NCBI GenBank assembly: GCA_039811685.1
Contig: JBDHZC010000009.1
Location: forward strand, 64,001 to 128,000
DNA: 64,000 nucleotides
Direction of reading: 5' to 3'
DNA from: Armatimonadota bacterium
GTDB taxonomy: Bacteria; Armatimonadota; UBA5829; DSUL01
Position numbers: made by a program. Position 1 is the stretch's first letter. Every line of letters begins with the position of its first letter. This document shows positions 27,001 to 39,000 of this stretch, one piece after another.

Positions 27001-30000
27001 CGCTTCTGATACTCGCACGAATTTAGTTCTTATATTTTTGCATAAAGTACTTGCATTTGCCTAAAACGCCTGTTATGATACGAACAAATGTTCTGTTCAA
27101 GGAGGGCGAGGAGTGGTCCACGGTGCGGCGGTGGCGATCGGTTCTTCGCGCGGGTTGGCGCAGACGCTCTGGCGGCCGGCGCTGGAGGCGGTTGGCTCTG
27201 AGGGCACAGAAGCGCAGACGGGAGTGGCGTATCTGCTGGAGCGCGAGTTTCGCGAAGTGGTGGCGCTGGCGCGGATGAGCTTTCGGGAACGCGAGGCTCT
27301 GGAAATGGCTCGCTGCGGATGGAGTGAGACGGAGATGGGCAGGGCGCTTTCTCTCAGCCGCTCTCAGACGACAGAGTTGCTCTCCAAAGCGCGACGGAAG
27401 CTACAGGCGGCGCGCGAGAGATATCCGTTTGCGGGTCTGTGGGAAGTTTACCGGGATGAAGTAGCGCGGCTGTAGGCACGGTGGTGGAGGTTGGGCTGAA
27501 GGGACTTTGCTGAAGAAAAAACAGAGCCAGGCAGTGGATCTGCTGTTTCTGGGCTCCCCGGAGAAGGTGGCGCAGAAAGTGGGCGTGCGGCACTCGACGC
27601 TGCAACGCTGGCTGGAGGACAGGCGCTTTCAGCAGGCGTTGAAGGCGCGGGCAAAGCAGAAGCGCAGGGCCAGCGAGCGCCTGGCGCTGCAGGCGGTGAT
27701 GATGGCATCGAGCGCTCTTGAGGCGGCTCTTCGAACAGGTGAGGACCGGCCCGTGACGCGAGCGGCTCTGGAGACGTTGAAGATCAGCGGCGTATTGCCG
27801 GGCTGCCTGGAAGCGACGCGGGACAGCGCGGACTCTCTGGCGGATGTGATTGCGCGGGTGAAGGCGGAGATGGATGAGCACGGTTAGCCGGGCGGGAAGT
27901 CAACCTCGGCTCCGGCTGGCCCTGGCTAAAGCGCTATGGAACTGGCAGGCGCATCCGACGCAGAGAGAGTGGCTGTTGTGTGACGCTTCTGTAAAAACTG
28001 CGGCTTGCGGGCGGCGGTGGGGAAAGACGGAAGCGCAGGCCGTGGACGCAGCGAGCTTCGCGTTGGTGCACGATGGCTCTGAACAGATAGTGGTTGCGCC
28101 GACCTACGACCAGGCGTCACTCATTGCGCGCGGGGTCGAGCGCCTGTTGCTCGGCTCACCGGCAACGCGCACGCTAACGCAGGTGCGCCGGACTCCCTAT
28201 CCGTTGATTACTGTTGGTCGGAGCCGGATTTCCGCCCGAACGGCGGATGAAGACGGGCGCGCTCTGCGGGGACACCGCGCGGATCGCGTGATTGTGGACG
28301 AGGCGGCTTTTGTGCGTGACAGCGTTATCTCGGAGGTCATCCAACCTATGCTGGCGGACTCCGACGGGCAGCTTATCCTGATCAGCACTCCTTACGGGCG
28401 CAACCTGTTCTGGAAGCTGTGGAGCCAGGGCGCCTCCGGGAACCCGAAAGCCGCCTTCCGCTTTCCGTCCAGCGCAAATCCGCACATCAGCGCCCGCTAT
28501 GTGGAAGAGCAGCGGGAGCGCCTGCCCGAGCGGGCCTTCCGGGCGGAGTATCTGGCTGAGTTTGTGGACGATCAGGCGCAGGTGTTCGCGTGGACGGATA
28601 TTCAGCAGTGCTTTGAGCTTGGGCGCACGCCTCACCAACCCTCTAGCTCTGTGCGGGAGCGGCGCATTGTGGCGGGGATTGACTGGGCCCGCTACTCGGA
28701 TTGGACGGTGTGTGCGGCGGTGGAGTGCGCCTGCGATCCATGGCGCGTTGTGGCTCTGGACAGGTTTCAGGGGCTGAGCTGGCAGGCGGCGGTGGAGCGC
28801 GTGGCAGGTTTTCTGAAAGACACTGAAGCGTGCGCTGCGCTCTCAGACGCAACCGCAACAGGAGGAGATGCGCTCCTGGAGCAGCTTTGCGTGGCTGTAG
28901 CGGGAGCGGGTTGCGAGGTAGATGGTTATGTCTTCACGTCAACGTCCAAGCAGCATCTGGTGGAGAATCTGAGCGTGGTTATGGCGCGTGGCGGCCTTGC
29001 GCTGCCGCCGGAAGAGCTTTCGCATTCTGGGGCGCTGATTCACGAGTTGAAGAGCTATCAGTATGTCCAGCGCCCTGGCGGCGCTGTCAGCTTTGGCGCA
29101 GCGCCGGGGGAGCATGATGACTGCGTCACAGCGCTGGCTCTGGCCGTGTGGCAGGCGAAGAACGCGCCGCAGTGGCGGATTATGACATCGGGTGCGCTGC
29201 TCGGCGATCGGCGGCGCGGGCGCGCGTTGTGGTGATAAGTGAGCAGTCTCTCTGGTTAGGGCAGGGACACTGAGAAGGAGGGTTTTGTGGCAATAGCTGG
29301 TCTCTTGAAGCGTCTGAGGCGTGAGGGGAAGGGGTCTGAAGCGCCGGTGGAGCTGGCGGCAGCCAGGCGACGGTACTTATCCGGACCGGGCGCCTTGCTG
29401 CCGTACAATCCGGACGACCTTGCCCGGCGCGAGGGGCTGGAAGTGTACGACCGGATGCAGACGGATGCCCAGATTGCGGCGGCGCTGGTGACGAAGAAGT
29501 TTGCGGCACTGTCCGGGGGCTGGCGGGTTACGCCCGCTTCAGAGCGGCGCGAGGACGTGCAGGCGGCGCAGTTTTGTCACCGGGCACTGGAGGAGATGAA
29601 AGGGACGGTGGAAGACGCGCTCTACGGAGTGCTGGACGCTCTGGCAAAGGGCTACTCGGTGGCTGAGATGAACTTTGCGCGCGTTGGAGACCGCGTCGGT
29701 CTGGCGTCTATCAAACAGAAGGATCCGGCGCTGTTTGAGTTTGAGACAGACGAGTATCTGAACATCACAGCGCTTGTCAGGATAGGAACAGACGGAGATG
29801 AGCCCCGGAAGCTGCCTGTGGAGAAGTTCATCATCTACACCTACATGCCCACCTATGCGGACCCGCGGGGACGCTCGGATCTGCGCTCATGCTACCGCCA
29901 CTGGTGGACCAAAGATGTCATTCTGCGCTTTTTCGCGTCGTATCTGGAGCGCTTTGGCTCACCCGTGGTCAAGGGGACGTACCGCCGCGGGGCGACGCGC

Positions 30001-36000: not shown

Positions 36001-39000
36001 AAAGGCGATTTTTGAGCAGGGCGCTGCGCGTCTGGCGCCATTTCGAAAGGCGATGGGCGTGTCGGATGCGCAGACGAAAGTCCTGTCAAGCAGCGTATCC
36101 CACCCTCGTTTGATGTCTTCGACTGAACGGAAGGGCTGGTGATGGGGGCTTTTACAAAGCGGATGGATGCGAAGCTGGCAGTGTACGGTGAGCTTATCTC
36201 GCTGGGTGGTGTGGATGTGCGCGCGCTGGTGCAGGACATGACCAGCAGCTACATTACTACCTACTTTGACCCGCCGGATCAGTCTTCCGTGATCCGTCCG
36301 GGACTGCTGGCCGTTGTCGGGGCGGACGTTTCGGCGAGCGCTGGGCAGTCGGTAAGTCTGGGCGCGCGGACCTACACCGTGTGGAAGGTGGCGCCTCAAC
36401 ATCTGGCTGGTCAGGTCGTCTGTCAGGTGCTGGCGCTTTATTGAAAGGAGGGAGAGTGGATAGTAGAGATATTATGTCGCGCCTGGCGGTTATTGAGGCG
36501 CGGCTGCAGGATGCGCTTGGGCATCTAGTGGAGATCCGCCGGCATGTGCCAGGCACGCTGATTTCGCATACCGAACGGATAGCCTCTGTTGAGCGCGCGC
36601 AGAGAAGTCTGGTCTGGGGACTGGCGGCTGCGTTTGGTGGGTTCTTGAGCGCTTTTGTCGCTCACATCTTTGGAGGATTGCCATGATAAGCGCGCAGAGC
36701 GCCGGCGCCCAGCTCGCCGAAGTTTGTGCCCATCTGGCGCACTGGCGCAAGGGCGCGGCCAACCCGGAAGGACGTTGTCTGGAAGCGGTGCGCTGGGCCC
36801 TGGCGCAGGAAGCCTTGAGTCTCCCTGGCCCCTTTGTGCGCCCGAACAACACGGCATTGGGGTGCTTTGATGCCCTGGAGAAAGCGCCGGAGCGGTGGAG
36901 CTGGCAGAGATGGACCCACGCGCAGCATCCCGGACAGAGCCTGCCGCTATGCCTGGTGTTTTTCAAGGACTGCGGGTATCTGTCCGACGGTCGCGTTGCC
37001 GGGCACGTGGCGGTGTACGACCCGGCCCGCCGCCGCCATGAGGCGAATCAGGTATATCCGATGACGCTGTGGTGGGCGCAGCGGTTGATCGGGGCGTTTG
37101 TGCCGCTCAGAAGGCCGGGTATTGGAGGCGCCGGCGGTTGAAACCGACTCTGCGGGACGGGGAGGCGCCGGCGGTTGAAACCGCGCCTGTGGGACGGGGA
37201 GGCGCCGGCGGTTGAAACCGCGCCTGTGGAACGAAGTCTCCCTTCGGAGACTTTTGGTTGTGAGCCTGCGAAGGCAGGCTTTGTCTGGTTAGAGGCGACT
37301 TCAGTCGCTCAGCTCTCTTGACCGGAGAGAATCGACTATCTCCTGTGTCTGGTACACGACTCGGGACTCGGTCCAGGAGGGATTCTGGACGTGGAGCAGC
37401 TCATGCACAATGTCCTCCAGCGTCAGAATTCGCGTGTGATAGATGGTCGCGATATGTGTGTCATAGACCACTCCGACCAGTGACCAGCCCGGGCGGCCGT
37501 CTTCGCCCGTCACCTGAAACCGGCTGATGCGCTCCAGAATGATGCGCTGGGGTATGCGCAGGCGTTGACGCCAGAAATGCGCCGCATCTCTGGCCTGGTC
37601 GTCAGTCAGAGGCTGAAGAGGCGCTCGATGGGATATCTGTGTGTGAACGTGCTGCAAAGACTCCGGCTCCGACATCCTGCGATGTGAGTGATCCGCCGCC
37701 GGTCTCATCCTGTGCGGCCTTTGCGGACAAGACTTTCACTTGCGACATGTCTAATCATCGGCACAGTTCTGACAGGTCTCCAGTCCTGCTATTCAACGTA
37801 GAGGAGGCTGGCGCGGGCGGTCAGGCGGTGGAGGGCTTCGGACCAGCGCGCCCGCAGAGACTCTCTCACAAAAGGCCCTGCTCAGGCGCCTGCGGCTTCA
37901 GAAAATGGCGAATTCTGGGCTCTCAGTAGAACAAACCGGGCGGTGTCACGCGTCTTTATATGTGCGCGTGTAGAGGGATTGCGGGCGCGCCTTTGTTGTC
38001 CGGCATCGGAGTAAATGAACCAGAGCCTATGAAAGCGTCATCTAACGCACAGCAACAGGAAGGGTCAACTGCGCAGGCGTCCGAGCCGAGACTGCGGGAG
38101 GCGATCGCAAGCATTCCGGAGCTTCTGCGCCCCGCCAGACCATCCATCCCCAAAGGACTGGGGTATTTCGCGCTGGACTTGGCGCTGTATCTGGTGTCGC
38201 TGTGGGGAATGATCTTAGGCGGAGTCTGGCTCTATCTCCCGTCGCTTGTCCTCAATGTGTTCTCTATCGGCGGGTTATTCATCGTCGCTCACGACTGTTG
38301 TCACGGCTCACTTTTCGGCAACAAATCCGCCGTGCGGCGTATGCTTAGCTATATCGTAGGGCAGAGCGCCATGCTCACAGGAGCTCACATGTATCAGGTG
38401 TGGGAGTACGGCCACAACCGCGTACACCATGGCCACACCACCAAGCAGTCTTTCGACTTCGTCTGGCATCCCGTGACGCCTCAGCAGTACCAGCAGCTTG
38501 GACGCCTGGGGAGATGGTGGCACAGGCTCTGCTGGAGTCCTTTCGGGCATGGACTGTACTATCTGGTGCATATCTGGATCGGGAAGATGTGGGCGTTCAG
38601 GGGTCTGCGGGACGGTGCGCTCAAATGGCGCATGACGCGCGATAAGCTCATCGTTGCCGCTTACCTTAGCGTGGTGGCTGTGCTGTTTTTCCGCTATCTT
38701 GGCTTCTGGGCCTGGGCGCGCGCGGTGCTTGTCCCATTTCTTATCTGGAATCACTACATCGGCTTTGTGGTGTACGTGCAGCACATTCACGAGATGGTGA
38801 TCTGGCGCGTGCGCAGGTCGTGGACTCCCTTTAAGGGTCAGGTAGAGGGAACTGTGAGCTTTCGTTTTCCCTCTGTCCTCAACTTTTTCTCGCACAACAT
38901 CTTCGTCCACACTCCCCACCATGTGGACATGCGTATTCCTTTCTACTACCTGCCCAAGGCCATGGCGGCGCTGCGCGATCAGTACTCAGGATACGTCATT

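Follow-up and report, generated by a model that had tools for sequence, protein, structure and literature searches.

Results

A phage head and packaging cluster on an Armatimonadota chromosome

In the genome of an Armatimonadota bacterium (here G000), a cluster on the plus strand at positions 27113 to 37141 of the window, the 64,000-nucleotide stretch of DNA that we analyzed, encodes the small and large terminase subunits (TerS and TerL), a Mu-type portal, a protease/scaffold, a cement-like protein and a capsid protein of the Mu gpT type (Table 1). An earlier survey had reported these genes; we found the ORFs at the stated positions, on the plus strand, and the two extremes of its E-values, for TerS (phrog_7344) and the capsid protein (phrog_371), were reproduced exactly.

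Table 1. Features of the head and packaging cluster in G000 (window positions; matches with E-values unless stated otherwise)
Feature	Position	Strand	Evidence
g01, 120 aa, sigma-70 region-4-like helix-turn-helix	27113..27475	+	PF08281 5.8e-4, PF04545 1.7e-3
TerS, 126 aa, N-terminal HTH	27507..27887	+	phrog_7344 9.5e-8, phrog_2538 6.1e-6
TerL, 453 aa	27874..29235	+	phrog_2 5.5e-38, PF03237 2.3e-12
Portal, Mu type, 365 aa	29287..30384	+	PF06074 4.5e-70, phrog_113 8.3e-77
Inserted cargo: Gp49/HigB-like toxin, 127 aa	30515..30898	+	PF05973 4.2e-6
Inserted cargo: XRE-type HTH antitoxin (likely start 30912, read from sequence)	30798..31340	+	PF13560 1e-5, phrog_1373 3e-12
Inserted cargo: SecB-like chaperone, 168 aa	31270..31776	+	PF02556 1.1e-5
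Small ORF, 74 aa, abuts protease start	31808..32032	+	groups with a G001 ORF of 48 aa in the same position
Prohead protease with C-terminal scaffold (Mu gpI type), 272 aa	32029..32847	+	phrog_976 2e-12, PF10123 1.1e-4
Cement/decoration-like virion protein, 137 aa	32848..33261	+	phrog_1731 7.4e-28, PF09956 1e-3
Two tandem 101-nt repeats, terminator-like hairpin in each, between cement and capsid genes	33266..33467	.
Major capsid protein, Mu gpT type, 298 aa	33524..34420	+	PF10124 1.6e-74, phrog_371 6.2e-80
g11, between capsid and adaptor genes (likely start 34502, read from sequence)	34439..35005	+	no family match
SGNH/GDSL hydrolase, 232 aa, variable slot	34993..35691	+	PF13472 2.2e-16
Predicted head-to-tail adaptor, HK97 gp6/Mu neck-subunit fold, 144 aa	35708..36142	+	model pLDDT 77.6
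Predicted stopper/head-closure protein, 101 aa	36139..36444	+	model pLDDT 92.7
g15, 81 aa, predicted helical N-terminal part and one C-terminal membrane helix	36441..36686	+	hydrophobic segment 56-80
g16, 152 aa, candidate papain-like (CHAP/NlpC-P60-like) cell-wall hydrolase in endolysin position	36683..37141	+
Three 37-nt repeats and one copy of the same hairpin element, 3' end of cluster	37124..37262	.

The TerS gene overlaps the start of TerL by 14 nt; tblastn detected it in 13 of the 20 loci of relatives. Across 15 orthologues TerL is invariant at GRRWGKTE (residues 46-53), DE (142-143), STP (171-173), D270 and DD (415-416), which we take to be the Walker A, Walker B, coupling and nuclease motifs. 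The portal and the cement-like protein are present in all 20 fetched loci of relatives. In the protease, His67 and Ser110 are conserved in at least 90% of 20 orthologues, and both family matches are confined to the C-terminal part; the 74-aa ORF next to it, which has no family match, may be a small gene in its own right or an N-terminal fragment that was separated from the protease. At the 5' end, both Pfam scores of g01 lie under the curated cut-offs, and G001 has a homologue with 42% identity directly before TerS but on the other strand; g01 is a possible, if weak, candidate for the cluster regulator.

G+C content is 0.57-0.63 within the cluster and 0.57-0.63 across the whole window, and the coding score per codon, derived from scores and lengths, is about 0.10-0.26 for cluster genes versus 0.13-0.26 for flank genes. 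The terminator-like hairpin of the 101-nt repeats has 18 copies genome-wide. Contigs from RNA libraries, which cannot prove transcription, overlap cluster genes in two studies.

Two previously unassigned genes are predicted to encode neck proteins

The survey had raised the concern that unassigned genes of the cluster might hide tail proteins. Instead, the structural models of two of them have the folds of a head-to-tail adaptor and of a stopper. By VIA-align, the adaptor model resembles the necks of P74-26 (Z 9.1) and Mu (Z 6.6 and 6.1), HK97 gp6 (Z 7.4) and a chain of RcGTA (Z 5.8). Foldseek matched the stopper model to 2pp6 (1.4e-3), to the stoppers of T1 (2.4e-3) and R4C (3.5e-3) and to the lambda neck (1e-2), and its best 22 rows in VIA-align are phage or phage-like neck chains throughout (Z 9.7-6.5). 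Both proteins are present in all 21 loci. Stoppers of this type dock long tails.

The cluster ends in a probable lysis pair

The last two genes of the cluster, g15 and g16, look like a lysis pair. Tblastn matched g15 in 12 of 20 loci. Its Atlas features score 0.94 both against viral clusters and against the XhlA family, in which 99% of the 85 members carry PF10779, a lead toward an XhlA-like lysis accessory protein. Those of g16 score 0.93-0.94 to CHAP, NlpC/P60 and Amidase_5 clusters, and Cys32, His108 and Asn122 are invariant in six homologues; Pfam, PHROG, PDB-profile and hhalign searches gave no support for the hydrolase assignment. A peptidoglycan hydrolase was recognized at the same end position in 15 of the 20 relatives' loci, drawn from differing families (Amidase_3, M15/VanY, M23 and NlpC/P60), and was not found in the other five (L032, L033, L035, L043 and L048). 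The holin-like protein F7 is absent from G000. With a lysis pair probable here and a hydrolase in this position in most relatives, the survey's statement that the G000 cluster lacks an endolysin probably no longer holds. Likewise, its "small unknown proteins" keep that description only in part, as they include the predicted adaptor and stopper, an XhlA-like membrane protein and a probable cysteine peptidase.

Variable and inserted genes

Between the capsid and adaptor genes lies a variable slot, occupied by an SGNH esterase in G000 and by lectin- or fibre-like proteins in other loci. The esterase is found at this locus in G000 and G004 only. It has weak PHROG matches to tail, tail-fibre and head-decoration proteins with domains of this kind (E 3e-4 to 0.017), the one exception to an otherwise negative search for tail families. 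Its neighbor g11 matched no Pfam or PHROG family and is limited to family f1 among the relatives' loci (72% and 48% identity); its N-terminal motif, N-[VI]-[LM]-P-V-A-V, is common to the protein family F12 of other loci.

After the portal come three genes (30515-31776) that form an inserted toxin-antitoxin-chaperone module and do not belong to the head genes. The toxin occurs at the same site only in G004 (locus L031, 55% identity), which also has orthologues of the antitoxin and the chaperone; the insertion site is identical in the two genomes, in line with vertical descent. The G000 chaperone scores 25.8 bits to PF02556 versus a cut-off of 26. Elsewhere among the relatives, the core genes are interrupted by housekeeping genes such as those for a MIP channel and a GHMP-kinase fusion.

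The cluster descends with the chromosome

The capsid gene, single in G000 as the survey had stated, is present in 38 of the 41 class genomes with G000 counted, and TerL in 37 of 41, equal to the 36 of 40 relatives reported earlier. Head genes are retained in at least 27 of the 28 genera. Capsid identity is 68-77% inside the family and 48-58% in other families, and a capsid profile hit 70 of 201 genomes in a sample of the phylum, grouped by family, in agreement with the spread first described. Nevertheless, the head system is dispensable: it was found in only those 70 of 201 genomes, the cluster was not found in three class genomes (G002, G011 and G014), and the TerL of G023 is just a remnant, 168 kb from the capsid gene. 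Capsulimonadaceae genomes hold two to three copies, so some lineages duplicate or exchange the system.

Vertical descent is well supported. In a tree of concatenated portal, capsid, adaptor and stopper, each of five GTDB-based family labels forms a single clade with 100% support. Repeating the survey's label test gave the same outcome: four changes, which is the minimum, and none of 200 shuffles gave so few. When the capsid gene is taken alone, the Armatimonadota group of the tree has an SH-aLRT support of only 83%, takes in 11 IMG/VR rows and leaves out one genome row, L095. The flanks had been described as non-conserved, which is true of G000's own flanks but not of mutually closer relatives: in two within-genus pairs they are syntenic, with about equal dS in cluster and flank. 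For G017/G013, dS is 0.12-0.18 in nine flank genes versus 0.09-0.23 in ten cluster genes; for G018/G012, it is 0.22-0.38 in three upstream flank genes versus 0.12-0.32 from TerL to the adaptor. Omega is 0.03-0.13 in the first pair, except for the small gene F7 (0.42), and 0.04-0.16 for all 13 cluster genes of the second; 21 of 23 cluster genes in the two pairs combined fall within 0.03-0.16. The cluster genes are intact and under purifying selection.

The same is seen where the genes have come apart. In family f3, TerS-TerL is not within 10 kb of the portal in six of seven fetched loci, and five of those six genomes have a full-length TerL on another contig, the sixth being G023 with its remnant. 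The detached TerL of G013/G017 has syntenic host genes around it and shows a dS of 0.16 and an omega of 0.12. In five complete genomes of other classes, TerL and capsid genes are 15, 24, 275, 320, 351 and 755 kb apart, gene order is permuted, and the genes are scattered yet intact, with housekeeping neighbors such as TsaD and an ABC ATPase. The cluster is not a self-contained mobile element. Taken together, the syntenic flanks, equal dS, low omega, detached TerS-TerL behaving alike and dispersed intact genes uphold the survey's proposal of domestication and vertical inheritance.

Discussion

We consider it probable that the cluster is a domesticated remnant of a Mu-like long-tailed phage that has kept only the head, packaging, sealing and, probably, lysis functions. 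The best reading of the system is a gene transfer agent (GTA)-like one that makes sealed, DNA-filled, tail-less heads; we infer the particles, their DNA content and transfer from the genes. The operon would be switched on in some cells; protease/scaffold, capsid and cement proteins would assemble a prohead on the portal; and TerS and TerL would fill it with DNA, most likely the host's, because nothing marks the cluster as a replicating unit. The adaptor and stopper would then seal the portal, and the XhlA-like protein and the cell-wall hydrolase would lyse the cell, releasing the heads. There are two leading options for what may follow. The heads may dock onto free tails of unrelated phages, an option modelled on the capsid-forming PICIs (cf-PICIs), whose heads join foreign tails. 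Alternatively, delivery may be independent of tails, with the proteins of the variable slot (the SGNH esterase here, the lectin- or fibre-like ones elsewhere) sticking the head to cells. To our knowledge every gene transfer agent has a tail, so a tail-less one is without precedent for delivery.

The same evidence of domestication and lysis would fit heads kept for a benefit other than transfer, a less likely explanation but the strongest competitor. They might serve in an anti-phage response resembling abortive infection, in which an infecting phage triggers heads that package DNA and use up phage tails while the cell lyses early, or they might release protected DNA as a biofilm component or nutrient store. 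Toxin-antitoxin and SIR2-type cargo genes are often linked to defence, and such cargo is present, as the toxin-antitoxin-chaperone triplet and, in G218, as a SIR2-domain protein close to the detached pair of TerL and portal genes; the stopper, moreover, keeps a fold for docking tails. However, the core gene assignments include no known defence family, and an abortive response needs less than stable DNA-filled heads, which are what the conserved terminase subunits and sealing proteins point to. The present evidence does not tell such a benefit apart from gene transfer.

It is unlikely that the cluster belongs to a complete gene transfer agent with its tail genes elsewhere in the genome, too divergent for our searches. 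RcGTA keeps accessory genes at separate loci, and with the head genes themselves scattered in other classes, a similar scattering of tail genes would be no surprise. Again the stopper type docks long tails, and several conserved small proteins carry no assignment; g11, F7, F11, F12 and F22 could be unrecognized parts. Against this, no tail was found with three Pfam families, in one BLASTP screen or in scans of neighboring ORFs. No sheath, tape-measure or T4 gp19-type tube family matched in G000. The BLASTP screen ran 1479 plus-strand ORFs from 80 IMG/VR loci against G000. Ten full-size Mu-like contigs (capsid identity 33-41%) carry sheath-size (438-505 aa) or tape-measure-size (>1000 aa) ORFs after their neck genes, and their tail-size downstream ORFs had no match in G000 outside the cluster. 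Beyond the head genes, ORFs of these contigs were the best match of three G000 ORFs, with queries from upstream of the capsid gene; the remaining matches came from low-G+C contigs that look chromosomal. In the class as a whole, tape measure occurs in 11 of 41 genomes and sheath in 10 of 41, less often than the head cluster (38 of 41) and always away from it, in pairs that look like ordinary prophages. In family f1, sheath was not found in any of six genomes, and the sole tape-measure match is in G002, which has no head cluster. The survey's claim that tail, integrase and replication genes are missing stands for cluster, flanks and genome by the searches used: apart from the weak matches of the esterase, integrase, transposase, replication and tail families had no match in the 17 cluster ORFs and 18 flank ORFs (about 10 kb of flanks).

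A mobile satellite of the cf-PICI kind, stealing the tails of a helper phage, would match the content well, with TerS, TerL, portal, protease, capsid, adaptor and connector and no tail, and IMG/VR lists fragments of the cluster as viral. The cf-PICIs are reported to release tail-less DNA-filled capsids that join foreign tails (10.1101/2025.02.11.637232). Such an origin is nonetheless highly improbable: cluster and flanks contain no integrase, excisionase, primase/replication or repressor module, the borders show no flanking direct repeat or adjacent tRNA, and the within-genus synteny with equal dS, the family-level co-divergence, the distant TerL genes of other lineages and the housekeeping genes between core genes all speak against it. 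A decaying, functionless prophage persisting by chance could account for the missing tail, integrase and replication genes, the loss of the whole cluster in three genomes, the degraded TerL of G023 and the one in-frame TAG in the G029 capsid gene, which the ORF caller split in two, but it is already disfavored by the selection data and hardly credible given full-length open frames in nearly all carriers, low omega, invariant TerL motifs and retention across the class genera and, after dispersal, in other classes.

To the survey's finding, our analysis adds the neck pair, the probable lysis pair and the inserted toxin-antitoxin-chaperone triplet. For the domesticated, GTA-like system that we favor, inheritance and retention in the manner of ordinary genes suggest a new kind of host-owned, DNA-carrying particle.

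Gene content and layout of the cluster

The forward-strand cluster consists of tightly packed genes, many of which overlap at their starts and stops by 4 to 14 nt. Its 17 open reading frames (ORFs) were scanned against Pfam and PHROG, and the 18 ORFs of the flanks against Pfam. The assigned core comprises the small and large terminase (TerS and TerL), a Mu-type portal, protease/scaffold and capsid, and a cement-like virion protein. The E-value extremes quoted in the survey's finding (9.5e-8 and 6.2e-80) were both recovered exactly on rescanning, for TerS with phrog_7344 and for the capsid with phrog_371. 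In TerL, the motifs GRRWGKTE, DE and STP, together with D270 and DD415-416, are invariant across 15 orthologues. His67 and Ser110 of the protease are retained in at least 90% of 20 orthologues, at a spacing that we take to be reminiscent of the HK97 protease dyad.

Features of the window (positions in the window; empty cells, no value)
Feature	Position	Strand	Evidence
Whole cluster	27113-37141	+	
TerS	27507-27887	+	phrog_7344 9.5e-8
TerL	27874-29235	+	phrog_2 5.5e-38
Portal, Mu type	29287-30384	+	PF06074 4.5e-70
Gp49/HigB-like toxin	in 30515-31776	+	PF05973 4.2e-6, above cut-off
XRE-type HTH protein	in 30515-31776	+	HTH families slightly under cut-offs
SecB-like protein	in 30515-31776	+	PF02556 1.1e-5, 25.8 bits vs cut-off 26
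Protease/scaffold, Mu gpI type	32029-32847	+	phrog_976 2e-12; PF10123
Cement-like virion protein	32848-33261	+	phrog_1731 7.4e-28
Tandem 101-nt repeats	33266-33467		terminator-like hairpin
Capsid, Mu gpT type	33524-34420	+	PF10124 1.6e-74; phrog_371 6.2e-80
g11, slot protein			
g12, SGNH/GDSL hydrolase			PF13472 2.2e-16
g13, predicted adaptor	35708-36142		predicted structure
g14, predicted stopper	36139-36444		predicted structure
g15, XhlA-like (lead)	36441-36686		language-model features, topology
g16, candidate cell-wall hydrolase (lead)	36683-37141		language-model features, invariant residues, position
37-nt repeats	37124-37262		same terminator-like hairpin
Type IV pilus/T2SS-type genes	41167-47131		one T2SSF, three T2SSE ATPases
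tRNA	9543-9619		

The G+C content is even along the window, and the coding score per codon, computed from ORF scores and lengths, is about 0.10-0.26 in the cluster and about 0.13-0.26 in the flanks, with overlapping ranges. Upstream of the cluster lie genes for ThuA, a methyltransferase, IspDF, a ribosome hibernation factor, PFK, a ROK kinase, a metallophosphoesterase and PhyH, and the cluster is followed by a fatty-acid desaturase, a sigma-GGDEF protein and the four type IV pilus/T2SS-type genes. By their annotation, the flank genes would all be ordinary cellular genes. The pilus/T2SS-type genes begin 4 kb downstream of the cluster, are found in this arrangement only in the Armatimonadota genome under study (G000), and show no link to the cluster in the loci of 20 relatives.

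A sigma-70 promoter scan returned one site against 1.9 expected. Tandem repeats separate the cement and capsid genes, and a second set of repeats marks the cluster end. A single type of terminator-like hairpin recurs in both sets; the genome has 18 copies of it at up to two mismatches, eight of them on the cluster's contig. The 101-nt repeats are missing from one RNA-library contig, in which 33262 is joined to 33518.

Three genes between the portal and the protease are foreign to a head operon. A HigB/RelE-type toxin, an HTH antitoxin and a SecB-like chaperone in a single operon define a toxin-antitoxin-chaperone module, and the order and overlaps of this triplet agree with that layout. It occupies the same site in G004, a relative (locus L031, 7173-8413; 48-55% identity), and is absent from another, G001; it looks like a derived insertion common to part of the family of G000.

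Predicted neck proteins

The survey's finding had allowed that unassigned genes of the cluster might hide divergent tail or neck proteins. We aligned 21 orthologues each of g13 and g14, two consecutive genes downstream of the capsid, and predicted both structures. The g14 model (pLDDT 92.7) gave Foldseek matches to 2pp6 (1.4e-3), the stoppers of phage T1 (2.4e-3) and R4C (3.5e-3) and the lambda neck (1e-2). Moreover, in a structure search independent of Foldseek, rows 1-22 were all neck chains of phages or phage-like particles, at Z 9.7 to 6.5, among them RcGTA 6tba_3A (Z 7.9) and PBSX XkdH (Z 7.4). For g13 (pLDDT 77.6), the best structure alignment was to the P74-26 neck chain (Z 9.1, rmsd 3.1 over 99 residues), and the model also aligned to HK97 gp6 (Z 7.4), to the Mu neck subunit (Z 6.6 for 5ydn, Z 6.1 for 9khx) and to RcGTA virion chain 6tba_2A (Z 5.8). 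For a helical protein, Z values of this size are intermediate, yet nearly all of the best rows are neck proteins. Foldseek returned nothing at E ≤0.001 for g13, with neck proteins as the best weak rows, and the alignment profiles of g13 and g14 had no match to PDB sequences at E up to 10.

The predicted folds identify g13 as a head-to-tail adaptor and g14 as a stopper, neck parts rather than tail parts, and as modeled the two would form the pair that closes the filled head. Thus the neck half of the earlier suggestion holds for these two genes and the tail half does not. In long-tailed phages, adaptor and stopper present the docking face for the tail.

Searches for tail and mobility genes

Scans of the 17 cluster ORFs with Pfam and PHROG and of the 18 flank ORFs with Pfam turned up no integrase, transposase or replication gene. 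There is no direct repeat bracketing the cluster as an att-like mark, and no adjacent tRNA, the window's sole tRNA being 17 kb away.

Searches of G000 for sheath, tape-measure and T4 gp19-type tube families gave no match, and control genomes did match. We also compared 1,479 forward-strand ORFs from 80 IMG/VR loci with all G000 ORFs by BLASTP. The head genes were matched; three other G000 ORFs were best matched by ORFs upstream of the capsid in full-size Mu-like contigs, and the remaining matching ORFs belong to contigs of low G+C content that seem to be chromosomal. In ten full-size Mu-like contigs, at 33-41% capsid identity, sheath-size or >1,000-residue ORFs directly follow the neck genes.

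Across the class, tape-measure families occur in 11 of 41 genomes and sheath families in 10 of 41, usually paired, at a distance from the cluster or on a different contig, and frequently near a second TerL of 28-31% identity. Such pairs lie in G006:C1, G008:C67, G010:C9, G015:C1 (1.25-1.27 Mb), G029:C160, G035:C7 and C93, G036:C123 and G040:C77; for G008, G010, G015, G035 and G040 the distant TerL (28-31% identity) is about 20 kb from the pair. These are probably ordinary myovirus-type prophages. Within the host family of G000 (f1), none of six genomes gave a sheath match, and the sole tape-measure match is in G002, which itself has no head cluster. A tail family was found beside the cluster in none of 20 loci of the class or 23 loci of other classes, the exceptions in the latter being weak fibre-like stretches and Laminin_G_3 domains in the post-capsid slot of three loci.

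Lysis genes and the variable slot

The two genes that follow the stopper gave leads to a lysis function. The N-terminal part of g15 is predicted to be helical and is followed by a single C-terminal membrane helix. By protein-language-model features, g15 lies closest to clusters of viral proteins and to the XhlA family (0.94; PF10779 in 99% of 85 members). In the lysis cassette of PBSX, a defective prophage, XhlA serves holin and amidase as their membrane partner. We treat the XhlA-like character of g15 as a lead, drawn from language-model features and topology rather than alignment statistics. The nearest clusters of g16 are CHAP, NlpC/P60 and Amidase_5 (0.93-0.94), and Cys32, His108 and Asn122 are invariant in five homologues. 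No Pfam or PHROG family matched g16 at E up to 0.1; a comparison by hhalign with NlpC/P60 proteins from relatives had a probability of 0.3%, and the profile found weak PEX5 rows alone in the PDB. Because these profile tests gave no confirmation, g16 as a candidate cell-wall hydrolase is a lead from language-model features and the invariant Cys, His and Asn, supported by its position.

That position is informative in the relatives, where the typical order after the stopper is the g15 family (12 of 20 loci by tblastn), F7 and a peptidoglycan hydrolase. F7, a family of small proteins with an N-terminal hydrophobic helix, occurs in 12 of 21 loci and is absent from G000. The hydrolase is present in the loci of 15 of 20 relatives and varies in type: Amidase_3 in seven loci, M15 in four, M23 in three, NlpC/P60 in four (always with Amidase_3) and a VanY-like enzyme in one (families from BLAST clustering of locus proteins, with nine representative members scanned). 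Non-orthologous replacement of an enzyme at a fixed position is how phage lysis cassettes behave. The cluster probably has a lysis function.

Between capsid and adaptor lies a variable slot. In G000 it holds g11, restricted to family f1, and the SGNH/GDSL hydrolase g12, found in G000 and G004 only; elsewhere it holds lectin-like or small beta-rich proteins. Laminin_G_3 (ConA-like lectin) or weakly tail-fibre-like proteins occur there in three loci of relatives (L033 11651-12421; L171 10601-11356 and 8700-9332; L179 11249-12157). That slot proteins are head-mounted surface-binding parts is speculation.

Distribution and gene order in relatives

Counting G000, 38 of the 41 genomes of the class encode the capsid protein, at 68-77% identity within the family and 48-58% in other families, and 37 of 41 encode TerL. 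Of the 37 relatives with a capsid match, 20 were chosen, with a preference for long contigs, and 20 kb surrounding their capsid genes was retrieved. Portal, protease, cement, capsid, adaptor and stopper genes are present in all 20 loci, TerL in 14 and TerS in 13. Ten flank genes of G000 do not recur in these loci, with the exception of one GGDEF-domain paralogue. Cluster genes are kept in 27 of 28 sampled genera of the class.

Many loci carry unrelated genes between the core genes, including an MIP channel, an SDH-type protease, a nucleotidyltransferase-GHMP kinase fusion, a PocR-GGDEF protein and GNAT acetyltransferases, insertions that a self-packaging element could hardly afford. In six of the seven fetched loci of the host family f3, TerS-TerL does not lie within 10 kb of the portal, and five of those six genomes have a full-length TerL on a separate contig. 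The exception is G023, whose TerL is a 160-residue remnant next to an intact TerS (locus L213, 5452-6301), 168 kb from the capsid gene. An IS transposase (rve) also sits between the capsid and cement genes of G023 (L035, 11001-12023). This lineage may have lost packaging while its head genes are still open.

In other classes (Capsulimonadaceae, Fimbriimonadaceae and Chthonomonas) the gene order is permuted: one arrangement runs cement-protease-capsid-adaptor-...-portal, and the other protease-cement-capsid-adaptor-stopper, with TerL-portal behind or elsewhere. Five complete genomes of these classes have TerL at 24, 755, 275 and 351 kb from the capsid and, in the one with two copies, at 15 and 320 kb; one has a TerL-portal pair that adjoins an ABC ATPase, GNAT and TsaD. 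With TerL 15-755 kb from the capsid, self-packaging would be impossible in those relatives, although as an argument for the packaging of host DNA this is indirect. With its genes dispersed in this way, the cluster would not be a unit able to move.

The capsid profile was found in 70 of 201 genomes sampled across the phylum (69 of 195 of high quality), about a third, and its occurrence is clustered: 14 of 15 genomes in family f18, 10 of 13 in f29, 20 of 23 in the class of G000, 0 of 16 in f8 and 0 of 7 in f22. Stop-free matches of at least 250 residues came from 171 of 180 loci and, with identical sequences collapsed, gave a capsid tree of 153 rows. All genome rows except L095 fall in a single group of 93 rows (SH-aLRT 83%), with 11 IMG/VR rows. 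One locus, L128, is on a contig labelled as a Methanoregulaceae archaeon, and its capsid differs from a Fimbriimonadaceae one by about 0.02 changes per column; the contig is probably mis-binned. Five genomes of Capsulimonadaceae type (G134, G150, G182, G211 and G221) have two or three divergent capsid copies, and both copies in G221 have their own portal within about 3 kb, with two full TerL genes at 15 and 320 kb. The copies point to a duplication of the system in that family, or to a second acquisition.

Vertical inheritance and purifying selection

Concatenated portal, capsid, adaptor and stopper sequences gave a tree of 21 rows and 954 columns. Each of the five host-family labels forms a single clade with 100% support; the four label changes are the minimum possible, and none of 200 shuffles was as low. 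Both genera with several members are also clades. The labels are GTDB-based codes, hence derived from marker-gene trees.

Flanks are shared among closer relatives. Two f3 genomes, G017 and G013, have at least six upstream and three downstream flank genes in common, both flanks are common to G018, G012 and G029, and three flank families recur across f3 genera. For G017/G013, synonymous divergence (dS) is 0.12-0.18 in nine flank genes and 0.09-0.23 in ten cluster genes; for G018/G012, it is 0.22-0.38 in three upstream flank genes and 0.12-0.32 from TerL to the adaptor. In the latter pair (L034 versus L038), dS rises to 0.7-1.05 at the stopper and remains high across the lysis genes and into the flank, over three host genes, which suggests an old recombination tract across the cluster boundary. 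In the two pairs, 21 of the 23 cluster genes have a selection ratio omega of 0.03-0.16; the others are F7 (0.42) and one inserted gene (0.28). The detached TerS-TerL of G013 and G017 lies among syntenic host genes, and its TerL has a dS of 0.16 and an omega of 0.12, versus 0.18-0.47 for its neighbours.

Five genomes of the family were searched for orthologues of the G000 flanks. The G001 orthologues of PFK and sigma-GGDEF lie about 62 kb and about 400 kb, respectively, from the cluster, which shows rearrangement, neither an empty site nor conserved adjacency, at this divergence.

Occurrence in sequence libraries

At least 61% of the sampled words of the stretch were found in 17 runs from 10 studies (run X1, from which the assembly may stem, left out of the count), mostly activated-sludge, wastewater and soil metagenomes. 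Contigs from two DNA runs cover the cluster and its flanks evenly and contain no excision joint. Two RNA-library runs yielded short near-identical contigs in TerL, portal, protease, capsid, g11, the esterase, g16 and the flanks; as assembled contigs, these indicate neither transcription, level nor strand.

Discussion

The simplest and most likely reading is that the cluster is a domesticated particle system of the gene transfer agent (GTA) kind that ends at a sealed head, because head assembly, packaging, closure and probably lysis are kept by selection without replication or movement as a unit. As in RcGTA and other alphaproteobacterial GTAs, phage-derived head and packaging genes are chromosomal and host-owned, passed on vertically throughout a large clade and kept by purifying selection, and they come without genes for their own replication, integration or excision. 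Further likenesses are the possible spread over several loci, release of the holin/endolysin type, here read from genes, and the alignment of RcGTA chains 6tba_2A (Z 5.8) and 6tba_3A (Z 7.9) to the adaptor and stopper models. By definition, GTAs fill their particles with host DNA, not solely with their own genes, and pass DNA on to recipients. RcGTA particles are tailed and bear head spikes and tail fibres, whereas our searches of the cluster and of G000 turned up no tail gene; moreover, the cluster's head is of the Mu gpT type and that of RcGTA of the HK97 gp5 type. To our knowledge, every described GTA is tailed, and domesticated DNA-moving phage particles come from a handful of lineages.

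Capsid-forming PICIs (cf-PICIs) are mobile satellites, a given element recurring at attachment sites of different species or genera. They carry integrase, regulatory and replication (primase/rep) modules, excise and replicate when induced, and package themselves. According to the abstract of 10.1101/2025.02.11.637232, they encode terminase, portal, protease, capsid and head-tail connectors without a tail, and they release sealed, tail-less, DNA-filled capsids that are joined later, outside the cell, by the tails of foreign phages. The cluster, known here from genes alone, likewise has its own terminase, portal, protease, capsid and connectors and no tail. It differs in that none of the mobility modules was found in its ORFs or those of its flanks, in that it co-diverges with host families and the chromosome, with syntenic flanks of equal dS, and in that its genes are split between distant loci in other lineages. 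By analogy, cf-PICIs would be the nearest mechanistic precedent, and the cluster the same head-only design in a chromosomal, host-inherited form.

Phage Mu has the gene order TerS-TerL-portal-protease-capsid-neck. The cluster agrees with it in this order, in its types of portal (PF06074), protease/scaffold (PF10123) and capsid (PF10124), and in the alignment of its adaptor to the Mu neck subunit. In contrast to Mu-like prophages, it lacks transposase A/B, a gpF-like protein and the tail module of sheath, tube and baseplate, and the nearest full-size Mu-like contigs differ likewise in having tail-size ORFs.

We tentatively propose that sealed, DNA-filled, tail-less heads, anciently host-owned and freed by programmed lysis, move host DNA through borrowed tails or a tail-independent route, a scheme that we regard as possible rather than probable. 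On the first route, heads would dock on free tails of whichever phages are nearby, making them a counterpart, chromosomal and in the host's service, of the chimeric particles of cf-PICIs. On the second, head-mounted adhesins or enzymes would act together with the DNA-uptake machinery of the recipient.

PBSX of Bacillus subtilis, with its xhlA-xhlB-xlyA cassette, is a host-kept phage-like particle system that has a contractile tail and works as a killing particle. The cluster resembles it in the likeness of g15 to XhlA, in the small membrane protein and often Amidase_3 that follow g15 in relatives, and in the alignment of the stopper to XkdH (Z 7.4). 

We think a role other than transfer, such as anti-phage defence or DNA release, rather unlikely. 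That an undetected tail set supplies delivery strikes us as distinctly unlikely; where the class has sheath and tape-measure genes, they are mostly remote from the cluster. An encapsulin-like protein compartment is ruled out because terminase, portal and stopper are conserved.

Full-text searches of the literature on Armatimonadota (Armatimonadetes) gave no paper that, by title or abstract, deals with a GTA from the phylum, nor did we come across a report of a head cluster that is tail-less and vertically inherited. Main-text passages of the Fimbriimonas ginsengisoli genome paper describe one 45.5-kb excising prophage with a recombinase and nothing further of the kind, and Armatimonadota are not mentioned in passages of a 2026 paper on small HK97-fold viruses. 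GTA-like domesticated particle systems are already known; what is new here is the head-only design, the host phylum and the dispersal pattern.

The head-only set stays intact even where its genes are hundreds of kilobases apart. Its carriers include genomes labelled Fimbriimonas and Chthonomonas, which are cultured genera, and Capsulimonadaceae; these are the labels of the records, type strains apart. Cluster loci are listed as viral contigs in virus catalogues, which inflates prophage counts for the phylum. If the proposed transfer is true, by either delivery route, the system would be a new class of GTA and the first in its phylum. If the heads are made and loaded with DNA, they would broaden the idea of a GTA, tie GTAs to tail-stealing satellites, and provide a concrete route of gene exchange in a little-known, hard-to-culture phylum that is common in sludge and soil.
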